From a virus, in the UHGV virus genome UHGV-0107399: a stretch of 14,657 nt of DNA, one strand, 5' to 3'. Numbering within the stretch: position 1 is the stretch's first letter; every line of letters begins with the position of its first letter. The notes beneath the pieces are model-generated. The model was not told the origin of the DNA. It ran no database searches and worked only from the letters and a program-made list of their open reading frames with translations. The position numbers and the translations under genes are program-made. Below, one piece after another: positions 3,986 through 10,844 of the stretch.

Positions 3986-4207
3986 TCATGCTTCAAAATC
4001 TCCCTTCACCCCATCCCGGTTCGAAATCAGGATGGCCAGCAGCAGCGACATGTTCGGTACCAGGTTTTCCCGCCACCGGCTTACGGTTGATTTATTCACG
4101 CCAGCTACTTCGGCGATCCTGGTTGTCCCAAGATCTGCGATTTGCCGCTGCACCCAGCTCTCAATTCGTCGTGCCTCCGCTTTGTTGCGTGTCGTTAAGG
4201 TCTCCAT
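3986..4207 (-). CDS. cII: CII-like transcriptional activator
   Basis: AEARRIESWVQRQIADLGTTRIAEVAGVNKSTVSRWRENLVPNMSLLLAILI aligns by eye with lambda CII (NEALRIESALLNKIAMLGTEKTAEAVGVDKSQISRWKRDWIPKFSMLLAVLEW). GAGGAA lies upstream of the ATG, and the gene sits immediately downstream of the cro-like gene. Confidence 0.8.
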   Translation of the reverse strand: METLTTRNKAEARRIESWVQRQIADLGTTRIAEVAGVNKSTVSRWRENLVPNMSLLLAILISNRDGVKGDFEA

Positions 4208-4234: not shown

Positions 4235-4468
4235 TTATGCCGCGGTATTTCGCGGCGAGGCAAAAACCAGGCTCTCTTTGAGCACCGGATCCTGGCGGTG
4301 AAATTTTTTTGTGGCATCTTCGATAGCCGATGCCATTTCTGGTGATGCGCGACGATTTCCGTAAGCGATCTGGTCCAGATAACCTGGCGTTGTGTTTGCC
4401 AGTTTTGCGAGCTGCGCCCATTCGTCTGTAGTGGCGCCCTTACGCCAGCGATGCAGTTCAGTACTCAT
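4235..4468 (-). CDS. Cro-like HTH regulator (77 aa)
   Basis: First gene of the minus-strand operon, divergent from the cI-like repressor across an operator-rich spacer. GGAGA lies 5 nt upstream of ATG 4466-4468. The HTH-like segment is TDEWAQLAKLANTTPGYLDQIAYG. Called by position and size, not by recognised sequence identity. Confidence 0.6.
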   Translation of the reverse strand: MSTELHRWRKGATTDEWAQLAKLANTTPGYLDQIAYGNRRASPEMASAIEDATKKFHRQDPVLKESLVFASPRNTAA

Positions 4469-4584
4469 TGGTGTCTCCGGTTGAGTCGTTTGATTTGGAG
4501 TTTAGCGTTATGCTAAATACTACGCAAGCAACATTTAGCAATTTGCACATTTATCATTTTGCTAAAAGCAGTAACAATGCAGGG
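4469..4584. promoter_or_regulatory. OR-like operator/promoter region between the divergent cro-like and cI-like genes
   Basis: A perfect palindrome TTTAGCGTTATGCTAAA (4501-4517), plus two degenerate copies of the same ATTTAGC-N5-GCTAAAT pattern at about 4533-4551 and 4549-4567. Three sites between divergent repressor genes is the lambda OR1-3 arrangement. Confidence 0.6.
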
Positions 4585-5262
4585 ATGGAAAATAAAGAAA
4601 TCAGAAAAGCCAACCTGGAAGCGCTGTATGAGAAGCGCCAGCACGAGTCTGGAATGACAAAGGCGCAGTTCGCCGAGCTCATCGAGACAAGTCCGGCTGC
4701 GCTTAGCCAGCTGCTGGGACCAAACCCTCATCGCAATATCGGCGATAAGATGGCTCGCAAAATTGAAAGTGCGCTTGATCTGCCTTTTGGTTGGATGGAT
4801 GTTTTACACACCAGTGAAGAACCTTCGAACGTTGCATTTCGAGGACTGAACGAGACAAAAGGAAGTTATCCTGTAATCAGCTGGGTAAGCGCGGGGCAAT
4901 GGATGGAAGCTGTAGAACCTTATCACCGAAGAGCGATAGATCGCTGGTATGACACGACTGTTGACTGCTCAGAAGATTCATTCTGGCTTGACGTTAAAGG
5001 GGATTCTATGACCTCCCCGGCCGGGCTGAGCATACCAGAGGGGGCAGCGATACTTGTTGATCCTGAAGTCGAACCGCGCAACGGGAAGCTGGTTGTCGCG
5101 AAGCTTGAAGGCGATAACGAAGCGACCTTTAAGAAGCTTGTAATCGATGCCGGCAGACGCTTCCTTAAGCCTCTTAACCCCGCATATCCAATGATAGAGG
5201 TTAACGGCAACTGCAAAATTATCGGCGTTGTGGTTGATGCCAAGATACTGAACATCCCATAA
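4585..5262 (+). CDS. cI: CI-like prophage repressor (N-terminal HTH, C-terminal LexA/S24-type autocleavage domain)
   Basis: The C-terminal half (WVSAGQWMEA...FWLDVKGDSMTSPAGLSIPEGAAILVDPEVEPRNGKLVVAKLEGDNEATFKKLVIDAGRRFLKPLNPAYPMIE) aligns by eye with the lambda CI C-terminus, including the Ser (GDSM) and Lys (FKKL) of the catalytic dyad. Start chosen at ATG 4585 (MENKEIRK...) by analogy with the lambda CI N-terminus; the track ORF begins at 4468, and 4510 is another candidate. Confidence 0.85.
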   Translation: MENKEIRKANLEALYEKRQHESGMTKAQFAELIETSPAALSQLLGPNPHRNIGDKMARKIESALDLPFGWMDVLHTSEEPSNVAFRGLNETKGSYPVISWVSAGQWMEAVEPYHRRAIDRWYDTTVDCSEDSFWLDVKGDSMTSPAGLSIPEGAAILVDPEVEPRNGKLVVAKLEGDNEATFKKLVIDAGRRFLKPLNPAYPMIEVNGNCKIIGVVVDAKILNIP

Positions 5263-5282
5263 CCTCACGCAAATCCCGCTCA

Positions 5283-5308
5283 AGCCCGCCATCGCGCGGG
5301 CTTTTTTT
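5283..5308 (+). terminator. Rho-independent terminator downstream of the cI-like gene
   Basis: AGCCCGC (5283-5289), 6-nt loop, GCGGGCT (5296-5302), then a T7 run to 5308. Confidence 0.7.
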
Positions 5309-5345
5309 CGCCCTAAATTCCTGCCCTGTAAATTTTTAATCGCTT

Positions 5346-5422
5346 ATTAATCAATGCGCTAAATAAAACCCACCAATAATTTAGCATTTTGCTATTGCGC
5401 ATAATTTAGCATCACGCTAAAT
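5346..5422. promoter_or_regulatory. OL-like operator cluster, likely with the early-left promoter
   Basis: Three sites of the same ATTTAGC-N5-GCTAAAT family seen at OR: 5346-5364 (degenerate left half), 5379-5397 (ATTTAGCattttGCTATTG) and 5404-5422 (ATTTAGCatcacGCTAAAT, perfect). A candidate -10 CATAAT lies at 5400-5405. The exact promoter was not resolved. Confidence 0.55.
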
Positions 5423-5839
5423 TTACCCCATCGAAACGAAACATCGACAGCTGAGCGAAGTTAGCCAGCGGCGGACAGCAAGTCGCCTGCTTTTTAACAA
5501 CATGCAGATTTACAGCGTCAATGACCTGTTAAGACCCCTACACGTAAACGTGCTGTATCACCGGGTGCGATCCGGTCGGTGAGAGAGTATCCCCGCGCGA
5601 GAGCGAGAACGGCGTGAGAACGGGCAACACTGGCAGGGAGTTGGCGCTGACCAATACAGGGAATGTTATGGGATGTGGTGAAGGGTTCATGGACGGGAAT
5701 ATGTCGCACGTAAAGCGGCGAGGCCCGAGGAGCTATTGCCGAAGATAAGTAGGCCGAATCGGGTCGAAATGGGTCTCCCACCTACCACATCGCCAAAGCA
5801 TTTCTCCCGCATCAGCGGGTAACGACAGAGGGTAAGGGG

Positions 5840-6136
5840 ATGATCGACGACATCAAGCGCATCGACTCAATGATAAATGCGCTTCGCAATATGAAACAGG
5901 ACATCAAGCGTCAGCAGAAACTAAGTGAAATAAACAGTTTAGACCTGTCGCCGAAGCAAGCTCAAAAGCGCAATGCCGATGCTGACTGGATTGCGATGGA
6001 ACAGATTAAGCGTCGGCATGAGCTGCACGCTCTGTCTGTTGAGCTTGGGTTCGCTGAGCGCCGGGAAAGTTATGCTCCATTTGAATTAACTGACGGGTGG
6101 CACCGATTCGACCACAAGCCGCGCGAACCTCAATAG
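5840..6136 (+). CDS. Hypothetical protein (98 aa), first ORF of the early-left operon
   Basis: ORF 5840..6136(+), MIDDIKRIDSMINALRNMKQDIKRQQKLSEINS... AGAGGG lies about 7 nt upstream and an intrinsic terminator follows directly. Not arginine-rich at the N-terminus, so not obviously N-like. Confidence 0.5.
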   Translation: MIDDIKRIDSMINALRNMKQDIKRQQKLSEINSLDLSPKQAQKRNADADWIAMEQIKRRHELHALSVELGFAERRESYAPFELTDGWHRFDHKPREPQ

Positions 6137-6158
6137 CCGCCTAACCAGCGGCTTTTTC
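6135..6158 (+). terminator. Rho-independent terminator immediately after the first early-left ORF
   Basis: AGCCGC (6135-6140), loop ctaacca, GCGGCT (6148-6153), then TTTTT. Confidence 0.65.
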
Positions 6159-6299
6159 ATACCTGGAGTCATTTACGAGTGGCTCAAGTTATGACAACCG
6201 GCGGCCATCCACCGCCCATTGAAACACTGAATAAATGCGTTGAAGTCTTGTATTAACCGTTCCGCTGGCCTGGCGACAAGGGCAAACGAGGGGATTGAG

Positions 6300-6569
6300 A
6301 TGAAAGGTAATACGAAGAAAACAGGCATGATCGGCTTTGGAGCATGCTGGGCACGTAAATTCTATTCACGCCAAAAGCCAATGCAACTCCCAAGTTCTCG
6401 ATCGAATGGCGGGAAAGGTTCAAACAGCCCTGAAGCAAAACACCATCGCCGCGCCCAGCAGAGATTCAACAAAACAGGCGGCATTCCTCGCGGCAAAGCC
6501 TACGTGAAAATGTACCGCCTGGGATATCGCAGCGAGAGCCGAAAAGACCTTATGCGAGCGACTCAATAG
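6300..6569 (+). CDS. Hypothetical small basic protein (89 aa)
   Basis: Internal start of ORF 6240..6569(+): ATG 6300 (MKGNTKKTGMIGF...) with GAGGGGA 5 nt upstream. Lys/Arg-rich (HHRRAQQRFNK, YRLGYRSESRK). Its 3' end overlaps the convergent minus-strand gene by 20 bp. Whether it is truly coding is uncertain. Confidence 0.4.
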   Translation: MKGNTKKTGMIGFGACWARKFYSRQKPMQLPSSRSNGGKGSNSPEAKHHRRAQQRFNKTGGIPRGKAYVKMYRLGYRSESRKDLMRATQ

Positions 6570-6843
6570 GTTTCAGGGCTAACGGCTGATCCTGTTCCGG
6601 CACATATCGCTCTTTGACAATAACAGCCAGTTTTTGCTTAGCCGCAGGGTCGTCATTAGATGTGACGAGTCTGTTTATCTGTTCTGAAAGTGAAAACCAT
6701 CCGTGAGTATCGCAAACGTAAACCACTGATGGAACTTCACGAATAGTTGGTGGTTTTACTTTGATGTTAACCAACTGATTTGTCTGGTTAAAAGACAAAG
6801 AATCTTCACCACAAATAGGACATGGCTTAGTTACTGATTTCAT
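6550..6843 (-). CDS. Hypothetical protein (97 aa) with N-terminal zinc-ribbon-like motif; moron-like gene on the opposite strand inside the early-left operon
   Basis: ORF 6550..6843(-), MKSVTKPCPICGEDSLSF...VVYVCDTHGWF. The CPICGE ... C-x2-H spacing resembles a YgiT/MqsA-type zinc ribbon (pattern only). AAGGA lies 7 nt upstream of the ATG. Local GC content looks lower than in flanking genes. Confidence 0.55.
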   Translation of the reverse strand: MKSVTKPCPICGEDSLSFNQTNQLVNIKVKPPTIREVPSVVYVCDTHGWFSLSEQINRLVTSNDDPAAKQKLAVIVKERYVPEQDQPLALKPIESLA

Positions 6844-7506: not shown

Positions 7507-7794
7507 ATGGAAATCGTAAAAATCGAAATGAACCTGAAAGCAGTGAATAAAGAAGTGGCTGTATTCAACTGCGAGAAGAAAGTATCAGGCGTTATTCACT
7601 CAACTACAAACGGTGAAACAACAGTCATTCTCGACGGTGGCTATGTGCTTGGCAAGTTTGATTGCCCGCACTGCGCCATTGAGGAGATCAGCTTGCTGGT
7701 ACTCAAAATCAGCGATAGCGATTACGCCGGCTGTGGAACCTACCGTACATACAAGCAAGATTTTATGAATGAGGCGATCGTAGCCGTCAGTTAA
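7507..7794 (+). CDS. Hypothetical protein (95 aa)
   Basis: ORF 7507..7794(+), with TGGAGA upstream. Contains CPHC and CG motifs. Followed by a GC hairpin at 7801-7816. Confidence 0.5.
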   Translation: MEIVKIEMNLKAVNKEVAVFNCEKKVSGVIHSTTNGETTVILDGGYVLGKFDCPHCAIEEISLLVLKISDSDYAGCGTYRTYKQDFMNEAIVAVS

Positions 7795-7934
7795 GCGAAA
7801 GCCCACCGAAGTGGGCCCGCCATGTCCGGCCTCACCGACCAAAGTTACACCGGAAACAACATTAAAACCAAAGTTAACCCAATGGGCGCTATCAATGGTC
7901 CGGGGATTCTAACACCCAAAAATGAGGATCTCAC

Positions 7935-10844
7935 ATGGAATTTTTCCATCTGATAAAAGCCAGTCAGAAGTCTGGCAAGAAAGATGCAGTGATTTGGTTC
8001 ACTGCGAAAAGTGTAGCGCGCGCCAATCTCCAACTCGATGTGGCACTGGAAGAAGCCGGAATTGAAGAAACTGGCCGCGGTAAAGATTATGCCAAACCAA
8101 TCCGCACCGATTTCCCGGTATATGACGACCTGCCGGAAGAAGGCGCAGTGGATTACACCTGGTGCGAACGCTACGAACTGCAGAACGATGACCGCACCTG
8201 GCTGCCAAAAGTCACAGCTGAAAACTCTGACGAGAAAACGGCTCAGACCGTTGATAGTCACATAACTACTGAGTCAACGCTGTCAGAAACCGCTGGCATC
8301 ACGCTGGACGAACACGACGACGACTCAACCCTCTACCCGGTAGTGCAGATGCCGTTTCGTAAGCAACTGCTTTCCCAGTTCACCGCCGACGAACTGCGCC
8401 ACCACGTAACCCACGAAGAGTACGAAGCTATCGGCGCGCTGGAGATGGACACTGATAACAGTTACGTCCAGAACTTGCTGTTAGCTGCTGAGAACTGCCC
8501 GGAAGTGAAGGGTTACGACACCAAAGACCTGTGGCGCTACACCGATGCCATTCGCAAAGTGTTCAGCCAGGACAAGCGTCACGAACTCGCGCTGGTACTC
8601 CGTTTCACCAGAATGTGGGCGGCGACTGATTACATTGACCGTGGCATCCTGGCGCGTGAATGGGCCGCCGGTAATCGCATCAGTAGTGTGCAGCGTACTG
8701 ATTCCGGCACTAATGCCGACGGCGGTTACGTCACTGACCGTGGACCTGACGCACACCACACACTGGACACTCTCGATTTAGAGATTGCGTGTGCCCTTCT
8801 GCCTATGGACTTCAACCACTTCGAGATCCCGGGCAGCATTCTTCGTCGCGCTAAAGAAATCGTGACCAAAAAAGAAGAACCATGGAAATCATGGAGCAAC
8901 ATCCTGCGCAATCAGCCAGGCGTTCTGGGTGTTAACCGCACGGCTATTTTTAACCTGGTACGTATCGCACCGGAAAATATTCATTTAACCCCTGTCGCTC
9001 ACCTGGAATTTGTTAACCAGACCATGACTGCTGAATTCAACTCTGCGGTTGAGTTATTGCCGTTGCATGAAGCTGAAGTAGCAACTCAGGAAATTCACCA
9101 ACCTGAAAGTAAGGAGTCTCCGCGCAAATCCTTCTGCACTCACGAAGAGAACCTGCAACGCGTGCGTGAAGAAGGAGCACGCCGCCGCGCAGAGGAAGCG
9201 GCAGCACAACCGCAGAAAGTCGAACAAGAACTGGTTAAAAATGTCGGCAACGGAATATTCGACGTTACGGCTTTGCTGCAGAACTCAGCAACTCATGGCA
9301 CGAAAAAGGCTACGGAGACCACCAGCAATGTGCAGGTTCAAGAAACTGTCAGTGATGAAAAACAAGCTGGTGATGAAGTACAGCCAGGCGAAAGCAGTCT
9401 GGAGTCTGGTGAAGAGTCAGATACCAGCCAGAAGGACGATGTAGACCAGAATACGGATTCTGTCGCCAAAAATAGCGATTCTGTAAGCCAAACCGAACCA
9501 GTTGCAGCACAAACCGAGCCAGAAGCGCAATCTGACGAACCAGCTGTTGTTTATCCCGCTTATTTCGAGCCAGGCCGCTATGAAGGGCTGCCAAACGAGG
9601 TTTACCACGCCGCCAACGGCATCAGCTCAACCCAGGTGAAAGATGCGCGCGTTTCGCTGATGTACTTCAATGCGCGCCACGTAGAGAAAACCATCGTCAA
9701 AGAGCGCTCAGCGGTGCTGGACATGGGCAACTTGGTGCATGCGCTGGCGTTGCAGCCTGAACTACTGGACGCAGAATTCAGCGTTGAACCGGTGATCCCT
9801 GAAGGCGCATTCACAACGGCCGCGACCCTGCGCGCCTTTATCGATGAGCACAATGCCAGCCTGCCGGCGCTGCTGTCTGCCGACGACATCAAGGTGTTAC
9901 TGGAAGAGTACAACGCCACCCTGCCGCCGCAGGTTCCGCTTGGCGCTAACCTGGAAGAAACGGCACAGAACTATATGGCGCTGCCAGCTGACTTCCAGCG
10001 TATTGATGGTGACCAGAAGCAGACGGCGACGGCAATGAAGGCATGCATTAAAGAGTACAACGCCACCCTGCCGCCGCCGGTTAAAACCAGCGGCAGCCGT
10101 GACGCGCTGCTGGAGCAGTTGGCAATCATCAACCCTGACCTTGTGGCTCAGGAAGCACAGAAACCGGCACCACTGAAAGTGTCCGGTACCAAATCAGACC
10201 TGATTCAGGCCGTGAAGTCTGTTAATCCGGAAGCCGTATTCGCCGACGAGTTGTTGGATGCGTGGCGCGAGAATCCGCATGGGAAAGTGCTGGTCACCCG
10301 CCAGCAGCTGAGCACCGCACTGGCCATTCAGAAAGCCCTGCTAAAGCACCCAACCGCCGGGATGCTGCTTCAGCATCCGAGCCGCGCTGTTGAGGTGAGC
10401 TATTTTGGCTTTGACGACGAAACCGGACTTGAAGTCCGCGTGCGTCCTGACCTTGAGATCGACTTGGACGGGGTACGCATCGGTGCCGACCTTAAAACCA
10501 TCAGCATGTGGAACATTAAGCAGGAAGGTCTGCGCGCCAAACTGCACCGGGAAATCATCGACCGTGACTATCACCTGAGCGCCGCCATGTATTGCGAGAC
10601 CGCGGCACTTGACCAGTTCTTCTGGATTTTCGTCAACAAAGACGAGAACTACCACTGGATCGCCATCATCGAGGCATCCGCTGAACTGCTAGAGCTGGGC
10701 ATGCTCGAGTACCGCAAGGCGATGCGCGCTATCGCTACCGGCTTTGACACTGGCGAATGGCCAGCGCCGATCACCGCTGATTACACCGACGAACTGAACG
10801 ACTTCGACCTGCGCCGCCTTGAAGCGCTGCGTACTCAGGCATAA
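7935..10844 (+). CDS. RecE-like exonuclease (exodeoxyribonuclease VIII-like), 969 aa, with C-terminal PD-(D/E)xK nuclease domain
   Basis: Long ORF directly upstream of the annealase gene. The C-terminal region carries a PD ... D-x-K arrangement (VRPDLEIDLDGVRIGADLKTISMW) typical of the RecE/lambda-Exo/YqaJ nuclease fold. GAGGA lies 6 nt before the ATG. The acidic middle region contains EYNATLPP repeats. Confidence 0.75.
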   Translation: MEFFHLIKASQKSGKKDAVIWFTAKSVARANLQLDVALEEAGIEETGRGKDYAKPIRTDFPVYDDLPEEGAVDYTWCERYELQNDDRTWLPKVTAENSDEKTAQTVDSHITTESTLSETAGITLDEHDDDSTLYPVVQMPFRKQLLSQFTADELRHHVTHEEYEAIGALEMDTDNSYVQNLLLAAENCPEVKGYDTKDLWRYTDAIRKVFSQDKRHELALVLRFTRMWAATDYIDRGILAREWAAGNRISSVQRTDSGTNADGGYVTDRGPDAHHTLDTLDLEIACALLPMDFNHFEIPGSILRRAKEIVTKKEEPWKSWSNILRNQPGVLGVNRTAIFNLVRIAPENIHLTPVAHLEFVNQTMTAEFNSAVELLPLHEAEVATQEIHQPESKESPRKSFCTHEENLQRVREEGARRRAEEAAAQPQKVEQELVKNVGNGIFDVTALLQNSATHGTKKATETTSNVQVQETVSDEKQAGDEVQPGESSLESGEESDTSQKDDVDQNTDSVAKNSDSVSQTEPVAAQTEPEAQSDEPAVVYPAYFEPGRYEGLPNEVYHAANGISSTQVKDARVSLMYFNARHVEKTIVKERSAVLDMGNLVHALALQPELLDAEFSVEPVIPEGAFTTAATLRAFIDEHNASLPALLSADDIKVLLEEYNATLPPQVPLGANLEETAQNYMALPADFQRIDGDQKQTATAMKACIKEYNATLPPPVKTSGSRDALLEQLAIINPDLVAQEAQKPAPLKVSGTKSDLIQAVKSVNPEAVFADELLDAWRENPHGKVLVTRQQLSTALAIQKALLKHPTAGMLLQHPSRAVEVSYFGFDDETGLEVRVRPDLEIDLDGVRIGADLKTISMWNIKQEGLRAKLHREIIDRDYHLSAAMYCETAALDQFFWIFVNKDENYHWIAIIEASAELLELGMLEYRKAMRAIATGFDTGEWPAPITADYTDELNDFDLRRLEALRTQA

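Follow-up and report, generated by a model that had tools for sequence, protein, structure and literature searches.

A structured RNA domain coupled to a ribosomal-type boxA in the early-left leader of lambdoid phages and its possible role in antitermination

Processive antitermination at the early promoters decides whether an induced lambdoid prophage expresses its recombination, excision and kil functions. Two RNA-based solutions are well established: (i) nut sites, which need the phage protein N, and (ii) put RNAs, which need nothing from the phage. In lambda, N bound to boxB renders RNA polymerase resistant to terminators, and the stretch from nutL to the ribosome-binding site (RBS) of N contains an RNase III hairpin. 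The accompanying boxA is, in general, the binding site of NusB-NusE/S10. The put RNA comprises about 70 nt and two stem-loops and has no boxA. Here, we analyse the early-left leader of a lambdoid prophage in the virus genome UHGV-0107399, a stretch of 14,657 nucleotides referred to as the window throughout. The window represents the early region of this prophage, with the early-left operon on the plus strand after the operators, and the untranslated leader covers positions 5431-5839 (~410 nt). The leader carries a boxA of ribosomal (rrn) type followed by a structured RNA domain that we call R1 (Table 1), an arrangement that looks like a hybrid, joining a ribosomal-type boxA to a large conserved fold. 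On comparative grounds, we lean, though not strongly, towards reading the first half of the leader as the cis-acting antitermination site of the early-left operon, in which R1 would replace N-boxB.

The locus itself is already known and annotated. Identity to phage phi80 starts at position 5423 and extends to 6285, past which the sequences diverge (99.1% over 5423-6285 and 99.8% over 5423-5900, BLAST). The phi80 GenBank records M11919, X13065 and JX871397 describe the order PL-nutL-N-tL1, and the window has the same promoter -10, boxA, 'nutL core', N open reading frame (ORF) and terminator tL1A; it differs from phi80 in its cI gene and its OL operators, and its -35 is likewise window-specific. 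JX871397 annotates the pL -10, to which the -10 of the window corresponds, a putative 'nutL boxA' (window 5488-5496) and a putative 'nutL core' (5541-5552), and the 1985 record M11919 lists 278 nt, equivalent to window 5451-5728, as 'nutL regulatory signal'. Identity and annotation together define the region as the known phi80 PL-N leader. A first-pass annotation, made from the letters of the window alone, had seen neither a recognisable N nor a boxA/boxB here, which the phi80 annotation formally contradicts: the ORF starting at 5840 encodes phi80 N, and boxA and 'nutL core' are both annotated. The combination of an N protein and a boxA site, which the first-pass annotation had named as grounds for giving up its own proposal of a cis-acting RNA, is present on paper. 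The phi80 records annotate just a 9-nt boxA and a 12-nt 'core', whereas the 133-nt covarying domain and its spread are undescribed in them.

A covarying RNA domain downstream of boxA

R1 is a real structured RNA. To collect R1 loci, we scanned viral contigs twice and representative genomes once with sequence patterns and then applied a covariance model of R1 built on alignment A3 (the trimmed alignment A4 had P1 out of register). R1 was found in 77 loci, comprising 73 distinct sequences from 12 clades, with model scores of 131-192 bits. RNAalifold yields an architecture of three nested helices, P1, P2 and P3, around three hairpins, P4, P5 and P6. In the model-based alignment of the 73 distinct sequences, 96.2% of 1968 cells are standard pairs. 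Compensatory changes occur in 16 of the 27 pairs, versus 1-7 when the partners are slid by 1-3 columns, and the covariation score amounts to 0.342 versus at most 0.066 in slid controls. Pair counts thus derived lie well above both slid and shuffled controls, and an independent MAFFT alignment gives the same picture. P6 is formed by at least 10 different stem sequences, and the R1 loops are invariant across hosts as far apart as Escherichia, Edwardsiella and Hamiltonella. The structured cis-acting RNA suggested by the first-pass annotation is borne out to this extent: a conserved, covarying domain lies precisely where lambdoid phages keep their antitermination site, and both structure and sequence are conserved across the related phages and prophages compared.

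The boxA preceding R1 is the sole zero-mismatch match to the boxA search pattern in the window. Its core, U-UUUAACAA, is invariant among the 73 distinct R1 sequences, and PA2, APSE and many other relatives match the rrn consensus at 13/13 positions. A weaker boxA-like sequence, CGCUCUUUGACAA (2 mismatches), occurs at 6608-6620 (+), antisense to ORF 6550-6843, and does not exceed chance expectation (25 of 200 shuffles give at least 2 matches).

R1 is present in a single copy per locus, and neither the opposite strand nor the rightward operon contains another. Beyond phi80, the leader core occurs in Shiga toxin (Stx) phages of the PA2, P13374 and TL-2011c types, in HK225, in Klebsiella KO-TP1, in Edwardsiella Edno5 and in Hamiltonella APSE phages. 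These include the Stx2a phages P13374 and TL-2011c (O104:H4 and O103:H25 outbreaks) and the PA2-type O157 phages, none of which has an annotated early antiterminator, as well as APSE phages with toxins that protect aphids. Every confirmed host belongs to the Enterobacterales (Escherichia, Enterobacter, Kluyvera, Klebsiella, Huaxiibacter, Edwardsiella, Arsenophonus, Phlomobacter and Hamiltonella). A pattern match in Corynebacterium was discarded as chance because the covariance model of R1 gave no match there. In the clades examined, the nearest long same-strand ORF upstream of R1 encodes a repressor with helix-turn-helix (HTH) and S24 domains, or is a moron inserted after one, and ends 110-760 nt before R1.

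At the gathering thresholds of Rfam 15, applied to the whole window, no family matches the leader, and at E<=10 on 5250-6300 the best leader matches are unrelated families far below threshold. A literature search, outside of which the primary phi80 papers lay, returned no description of R1. What appears to be undescribed is (i) the 133-nt covarying domain coupled to an rrn-type boxA, (ii) its single-copy distribution over many phages without any N gene and (iii) the modular substitution of R1 for boxB and N.

Coding content and composition of the leader agree largely with the first-pass description. The longest ATG-started plus-strand ORF between the predicted PL and ATG 5840 has 26 codons (5668-5748), or 44 aa if a GTG start is allowed (5614-5748); both ATGs of the 26-codon ORF are missing in close relatives, so that it is not conserved. 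An antisense ORF of 87 aa is present at 5518-5781. The purine bias reported for the leader is real and at the same time only modest (58.3% in 5440-5839 versus 50.3% in the whole window, the 96th percentile among 400-nt windows). Both hairpins that had been pointed out exist. The one with the AUCA loop lies exactly where it was placed, immediately upstream of the Shine-Dalgarno (SD) region; the ACCGG-N7-CCGGT pairing is located at 5560-5576, one base off the position given for it, and proves to be an alternative register of the longer P5 hairpin (5559-5564/5576-5581 and 5566-5567/5573-5574, loop CGAUC). P5 has the better covariation support, with 99.1% of cells paired versus 93.9% for the alternative. 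Transcription from the predicted PL would start at ~5430; this promoter was not called by a consensus promoter scan because its -35 matches only 3/6 positions.

Table 1 Features of the early region of the window
Feature	Position	Strand	Description
Predicted PL promoter	5395-5423	+	-35 TTGCGC 5395-5400, 17-bp spacer, -10 TAAATT 5418-5423
5' leader segment	5430-5487	+	begins CAUCGAAACGAAACAUCGACAGCUGAG; ends in hairpin GGCGGAC-AGCA-AGUCGCC 5470-5487 adjoining boxA
boxA	5488-5500	+	UGCUUUUUAACAA; 12/13 match to rrn consensus UGCUCUUUAACAA
R1 domain	5515-5647	+	133 nt, begins 14 nt after boxA
P1 outer helix	5515-5520/5642-5647	+	
P2 helix	5525-5530/5632-5637	+	
P3 helix	5536-5538/5622-5624	+	
P4 hairpin	5541-5552	+	A-rich loop; same stretch as phi80 'nutL core'
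P5 hairpin	5559-5581	+	invariant loop CGAUC
P6 hairpin	5593-5612	+	variable; inner CGC-GAGA-GCG here, GAGA hairpin frequent elsewhere
Module B, long irregular hairpin	5659-5805	+	base helix GGAAUGUUAUGGGAUGUGGUG (5' strand) with CACCACAUCGCCAAAGCAUUUC (3' strand)
RBS cassette	5806-5839	+	hairpin CCCGC-AUCA-GCGGG 5806-5819; SD region GAGGG 5828-5832 and AAGGGG 5834-5839; before ATG 5840
ORF 5840, 98 aa	5840-6136	+	100% identical to phi80 N; Pfam PF26859 'Phage_N_antitermin', phrog_25091
Intrinsic terminator tL1A	6135-6160	+	AGCCGCC-UAACC-AGCGGCU then UUUUU; terminator scan; annotated in phi80
cI-type repressor (HTH and peptidase S24)	4586-5262	+	followed by own terminator and three operator-like repeats
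cro-like gene	4235-4468	-	rightward operon
cII-like gene	3986-4207	-	rightward operon
O-like gene and DnaB-like gene		-	rightward operon

Modular exchange with nut and put sites

The 5' leader segment of the window also opens the PL transcripts of HK639, HK225, KO-TP1 and a Serratia prophage, and the elements that follow it differ. The Serratia relative has the 5' leader (CAUCGAAACGAAACAUCGA...), boxA and the base of module B, the long downstream hairpin, in common with the window; in place of R1 it carries a 7-bp GAGA boxB hairpin, GUAUGCC-GAGA-GGUGUAC, and it has a gene for an N protein with an arginine-rich motif (ARM) that is absent from the window. In 933W-type O157 prophages, boxB GCGCUGACAAAGCGC (GCGCU-GACAA-AGCGC) is followed by module B and then by an ARM-type N gene, without R1. 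In HK639, the same 5' leader is followed by the annotated putL. Together, these comparisons reveal three alternative modules in one slot: boxB with N, put, and R1.

The window resembles the nut regions of lambda, P22 and 933W in its position right after PL, in the order with boxA first, in the long hairpin before the RBS of the first gene and in the terminator after the first gene. It differs from them in that a 133-nt multi-helix domain stands in place of the 15-nt boxB 8-10 nt after boxA, in that it has neither an ARM-type N gene nor a nutR, and in its boxA, which is of the strong rrn type as opposed to the weak lambda type. All that remains of boxB in the window is the half-boxB-like GGCGCUGAC at 5643-5651. 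The 3' strand of P1 and the bases next to it (5640-5657, GGCGCUGAC-CAAUAC) can be aligned to the left half and the loop of a boxB of the 933W/P22 type, GGCGCUGACAAAGCGCAAUAAC (locus L007, 2966-2988; L numbers denote individual loci), and other R1 clades end in ...GC-AAGCGCAA, resembling the right half of boxB. R1 may have originated by insertion into, or recombination within, a boxB.

With the put sites of HK022 and HK639, R1 has in common that it is a cis-acting structured RNA right after PL in lambdoid phages without N, and HK639, too, has a single annotated put copy, in the left operon only. R1 differs from put by its size of 133 nt and by its boxA, the presence of which argues for an involvement of Nus factors, unlike in put. 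The covariance model of R1 gives no match in the PL region of HK022 or anywhere in the HK639 genome, the annotated putL included, and no homology is apparent by eye; we therefore rejected R1 as a homologue of HK022 put, with no model match and with a boxA that put lacks. Of the put-like RNA considered by the first-pass annotation, the role, namely independence from a phage protein, is a live possibility, whereas the homology fell away. In loci L058, L092, L098 and L119, a fragment of the HK639 putL stem (GGUCAGUCGAACGGCGC) lies directly ahead of the R1 boxA, ~45 nt upstream, which looks like a recombination joint of put-type and R1-type leaders.

The rrn leaders (boxB-boxA-boxC) share with the window a boxA that is here essentially the rrn consensus and, as we infer for R1, the reliance on host factors only; APSE-type members match the rrn sequence UGCUCUUUAACAAUUUA over 17 nt. 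The phage early-operon context sets the window apart, and R1 is without counterpart in rrn leaders. A hairpin that might correspond to an rrn-like boxB lies within 8 nt upstream of boxA in 71% of 55 distinct segments; compared with shuffles, it is not significant (median z -0.35).

The second half of the leader is modular as well. The base helix of module B (~21 bp) joins 5659-5679 to 5781-5805 and, across 10 variants that have unrelated interiors, is 87.6% paired versus 41-51% in slid controls, with 6 compensatory pairs. In the window, the interior (5669-5799) shows ~90% identity to the stretch that separates boxB from the ARM-type N gene in the leader of 933W-type O157 prophages. Like the RNase III hairpin of the lambda N leader, this 21-bp stem separates the nut site from the RBS of the first gene, which makes module B a candidate RNase III substrate and N-leader element. 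In many R1 loci, the same RBS cassette stands ahead of first ORFs that are unrelated, and it is also found in HK225 and HK639. Processing and translational control of the first ORF is the most likely role of module B and the RBS cassette as judged from their arrangement.

Antitermination and alternative functions of R1

The comparative data favour the independence of R1 from any phage protein. In all-against-all BLAST clustering of the proteins encoded up to 4 kb downstream, no family extended to more than 20 of 54 R1 loci or to more than 5 of 11 clades, and homologues of phi80 N were found in just three R1 contexts (the window, phi80 and L031). The 98-aa product of ORF 5840 has no similarity to lambda, P22 or 933W N, and searches of Pfam, PHROG and PDB returned only the phi80-named family, PF26859, and a PHROG of unknown function. 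Within its first 40 residues the maximum is 2 Arg per 14-aa window, versus 5-6 in lambda N and 933W-type N, so the first-pass statement that an N-terminal ARM is missing holds for this protein. An 'N' without ARM that is missing from nearly all R1 loci gives some backing to the earlier doubt about N. Members of PF26859 occur in small-gene arrays of virulent phages with no R1 nearby (a Kagunavirus, Salmonella STGO-35-1, Erwinia vB_EhrS_59 and Vibrio Seahorse) and, in Serratia and Proteus prophages without R1, right after a canonical arginine-rich N gene (PF25694; e.g. MNAKERCKLRRKLRRAAERAEA...LPEVAMFAAGFRKSENITARG). PF26859 genes in the neighbourhood of an N-type gene are seen at L134 (3729-4300), L132 (3723-4303) and L129 (2442-3291); in Erwinia vB_EhrS_59, the PF26859 gene comes two genes after one whose product HHpred annotation describes as lambda-N-like. 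The name 'Phage_N_antitermin' probably does not describe the function of the family.

The minus strand of the window has neither a boxA nor an R1 match that could represent a nutR, the phi80 annotation lists no such site, and 44 of 52 R1 loci have no nutR within 4 kb. A canonical nutR follows cro in the Enterobacteriaceae loci L032, L119, L107, L113 and L108 (boxA, ~20 nt, GGCUGA-GUAA-UCAGCC), and an ARM-type N gene was found in none of these five loci. In the Edwardsiella clade, nutR also follows cro (L022, 6859-6915, minus strand) and consists of boxA CGCUCUUUAACAA and GCGCC-GAUACA-GGCGC. Scanning the ORFs downstream of R1 for arginine-rich motifs returned mostly alternative-frame artefacts and one real family of 43 aa.

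In the window, tL1A is the first barrier that the PL transcript has to pass. Of the 33 loci examined, 20 have strong intrinsic terminators on the same strand downstream of R1, and in PA2/P13374-type Stx phages an intrinsic terminator follows 143-248 nt after R1, before any credible ORF. For an antitermination site of the early-left operon, we propose the following sequence of events. The nascent RNA would first expose the rrn-type boxA, which would recruit NusB/NusE, and would then fold into the closed ~133-nt R1 domain with its three nested helices and three hairpins. R1 and the Nus factors would stay on the elongating RNA polymerase and confer resistance to tL1 and later terminators. Since no phage protein is common to the R1 loci, we propose that the conserved R1 loops contact host components. 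The long hairpin with its 21-bp base helix and the hairpin-SD cassette would control translation and processing of the first ORF in the manner of the RNase III hairpin in the lambda N leader. Nus binding, antitermination activity, independence from phage proteins and RNase III cleavage are inferred parts of this scheme. More tentatively, R1 could represent a third phage processive-antitermination RNA beside nut and put, coupled to boxA, self-folding and dependent on host factors only.

The main rival, implied by the old annotation, is a conventional N-dependent nut site, in which the ORF 5840 product binds a leader hairpin (P4, P5 or the GAGA hairpin of P6) and, together with boxA and Nus factors, converts RNA polymerase as in lambda; R1 would then be just an elaborate boxB region. 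The GenBank records that name N, the nutL signal and tL1 derive from experimental papers, the gene order PL-nut-N-tL1 is that of lambda, a boxA is present, the GNRA-type GAGA loop of P6 resembles the boxB of the Serratia relative, and the Edwardsiella clade pairs R1 with a true N gene. We nevertheless consider N dependence rather unlikely, as PF26859 has no ARM, is missing outside three R1 contexts though the R1 loops are invariant, and is present, with no R1 in the vicinity, in virulent phages and behind canonical N genes; moreover, PA2-type phages place a terminator between R1 and any ORF, and phi80 and the window are without a second (nutR) site. A leader control element without processive antitermination would instead use boxA as a shield of the leader against Rho and R1 as a sensor or protein-binding domain that tunes the stability or translation of the early-left transcript and thereby lysis-lysogeny. 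The multi-helix junction with invariant unpaired nucleotides is reminiscent of ligand- or protein-binding RNAs, a 400-nt untranslated RNA is a natural Rho target that boxA alone can counteract (PMC7665894), and not all loci have a clear intrinsic terminator downstream. Against this, the spacer from R1 to the first ORF is highly variable in length and sequence, and the first ORFs have no relation to one another, which argues against control of one particular gene; R1 occupies the slot of put or boxB with N in relatives, and Rfam returns no riboswitch or ribozyme match. We regard such a control element as unlikely, more so than N dependence.

Lower still in probability is a source of a trans-acting small RNA (sRNA), with R1 or the long hairpin cut from the leader, for example by RNase III, and acting on host or phage mRNAs. 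Prophage leaders are known sRNA sources, the double-stranded downstream hairpin is a possible processing site, and the terminator scan reports a terminator-like hairpin with a U-run at 5470-5495. No conserved single-stranded seed is evident beyond boxA and the junction nucleotides, however, and R1 is strictly tied to boxA and to its place behind PL and has no promoter or terminator of its own, which fits a cis role better and makes this less likely reading highly improbable. That the leader is a decayed gene, as the first-pass annotation had allowed, or a chance structure, could appeal to the short ORFs on both strands and to an unremarkable folding energy; this least likely of explanations is refuted by the compensatory changes in the R1 helices across the 73 sequences, the lack of a conserved ORF and loops that are invariant across distant hosts.

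Several observations weigh against R1 as an antitermination site that works without a phage protein. Compared with shuffled sequences, the minimum free energy is unexceptional for the whole leader (z = -1.67) and not significant for the leader core (z = -0.88), and so the evidence for structure rests on covariation and energy was dropped. In 13 of the 33 loci, no obvious intrinsic terminator is found downstream of R1. In the Edwardsiella clade, the only one among the R1 loci where the canonical C-terminal motif of N is found, R1 coexists with an ARM-type N gene and a canonical nutR, which shows that R1 and N are not strictly exclusive. In the AT-rich clades (APSE, Arsenophonus and relatives), to which it is confined, the conserved arginine-rich peptide of ~43 aa, MxKxK(I/V)LxS(D/E)(K/R)FPMNNxVRRLRYxQKxEALKxNxxxxFP(V/I)TLY, is encoded 2-2243 nt downstream of R1 (L011 2642-2893, L055, L014, L088, L042, L096, L094, L103, L106, L099, L105 and L121); it belongs to no Pfam or PHROG family and could be an ARM-type partner of R1 there. 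The phi80 literature behind the GenBank records reportedly credits antitermination to gene N acting at nutL. If that attribution rests on N-defective constructs, R1 needs N in phi80. Finally, boxA alone is able to suppress Rho termination (PMC7665894), and R1 could therefore have a different job.

If R1 needs host factors only, it would drive early-left transcription in phi80, in the N-less O104:H4-type and PA2-type Stx2a phages and in the APSE phages of aphid symbionts. Independence from phage proteins would explain the readthrough of early terminators in N-less phages and provide a compact, portable antitermination cassette. The gene called phi80 N for 40 years (PF26859) would then not be the antiterminator, and the Pfam family would need renaming. 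If R1 needs phi80 N, it points to a new mode of RNA-protein recognition for an N protein without an arginine-rich motif.

Gene setting of the window

The immunity module (4468-5440), with cI and three TTAGCA-type operator repeats at both OL and OR, is unlike that of phi80 and is shared at ~93% with Klebsiella phage KO-TP1 and a few E. coli prophages. Its junction with the phi80-like sequence falls exactly at the PL -10. Downstream of tL1A, ORF 6300-6566 (+) begins just beyond the end of phi80 identity at 6285 and encodes a very basic protein of 89 aa (phrog_29236, unknown function) with an internal HHRRAQQRFNK. On the strand opposite the early-left operon, Rfam reports a match to isrB, an Hfq-binding sRNA (RF01386), at 7796-7893 (-), which covers the full model with 38.2 bits versus a gathering score of 35 and sits between ORF 7507-7794 and a 969-aa ORF starting at 7935.

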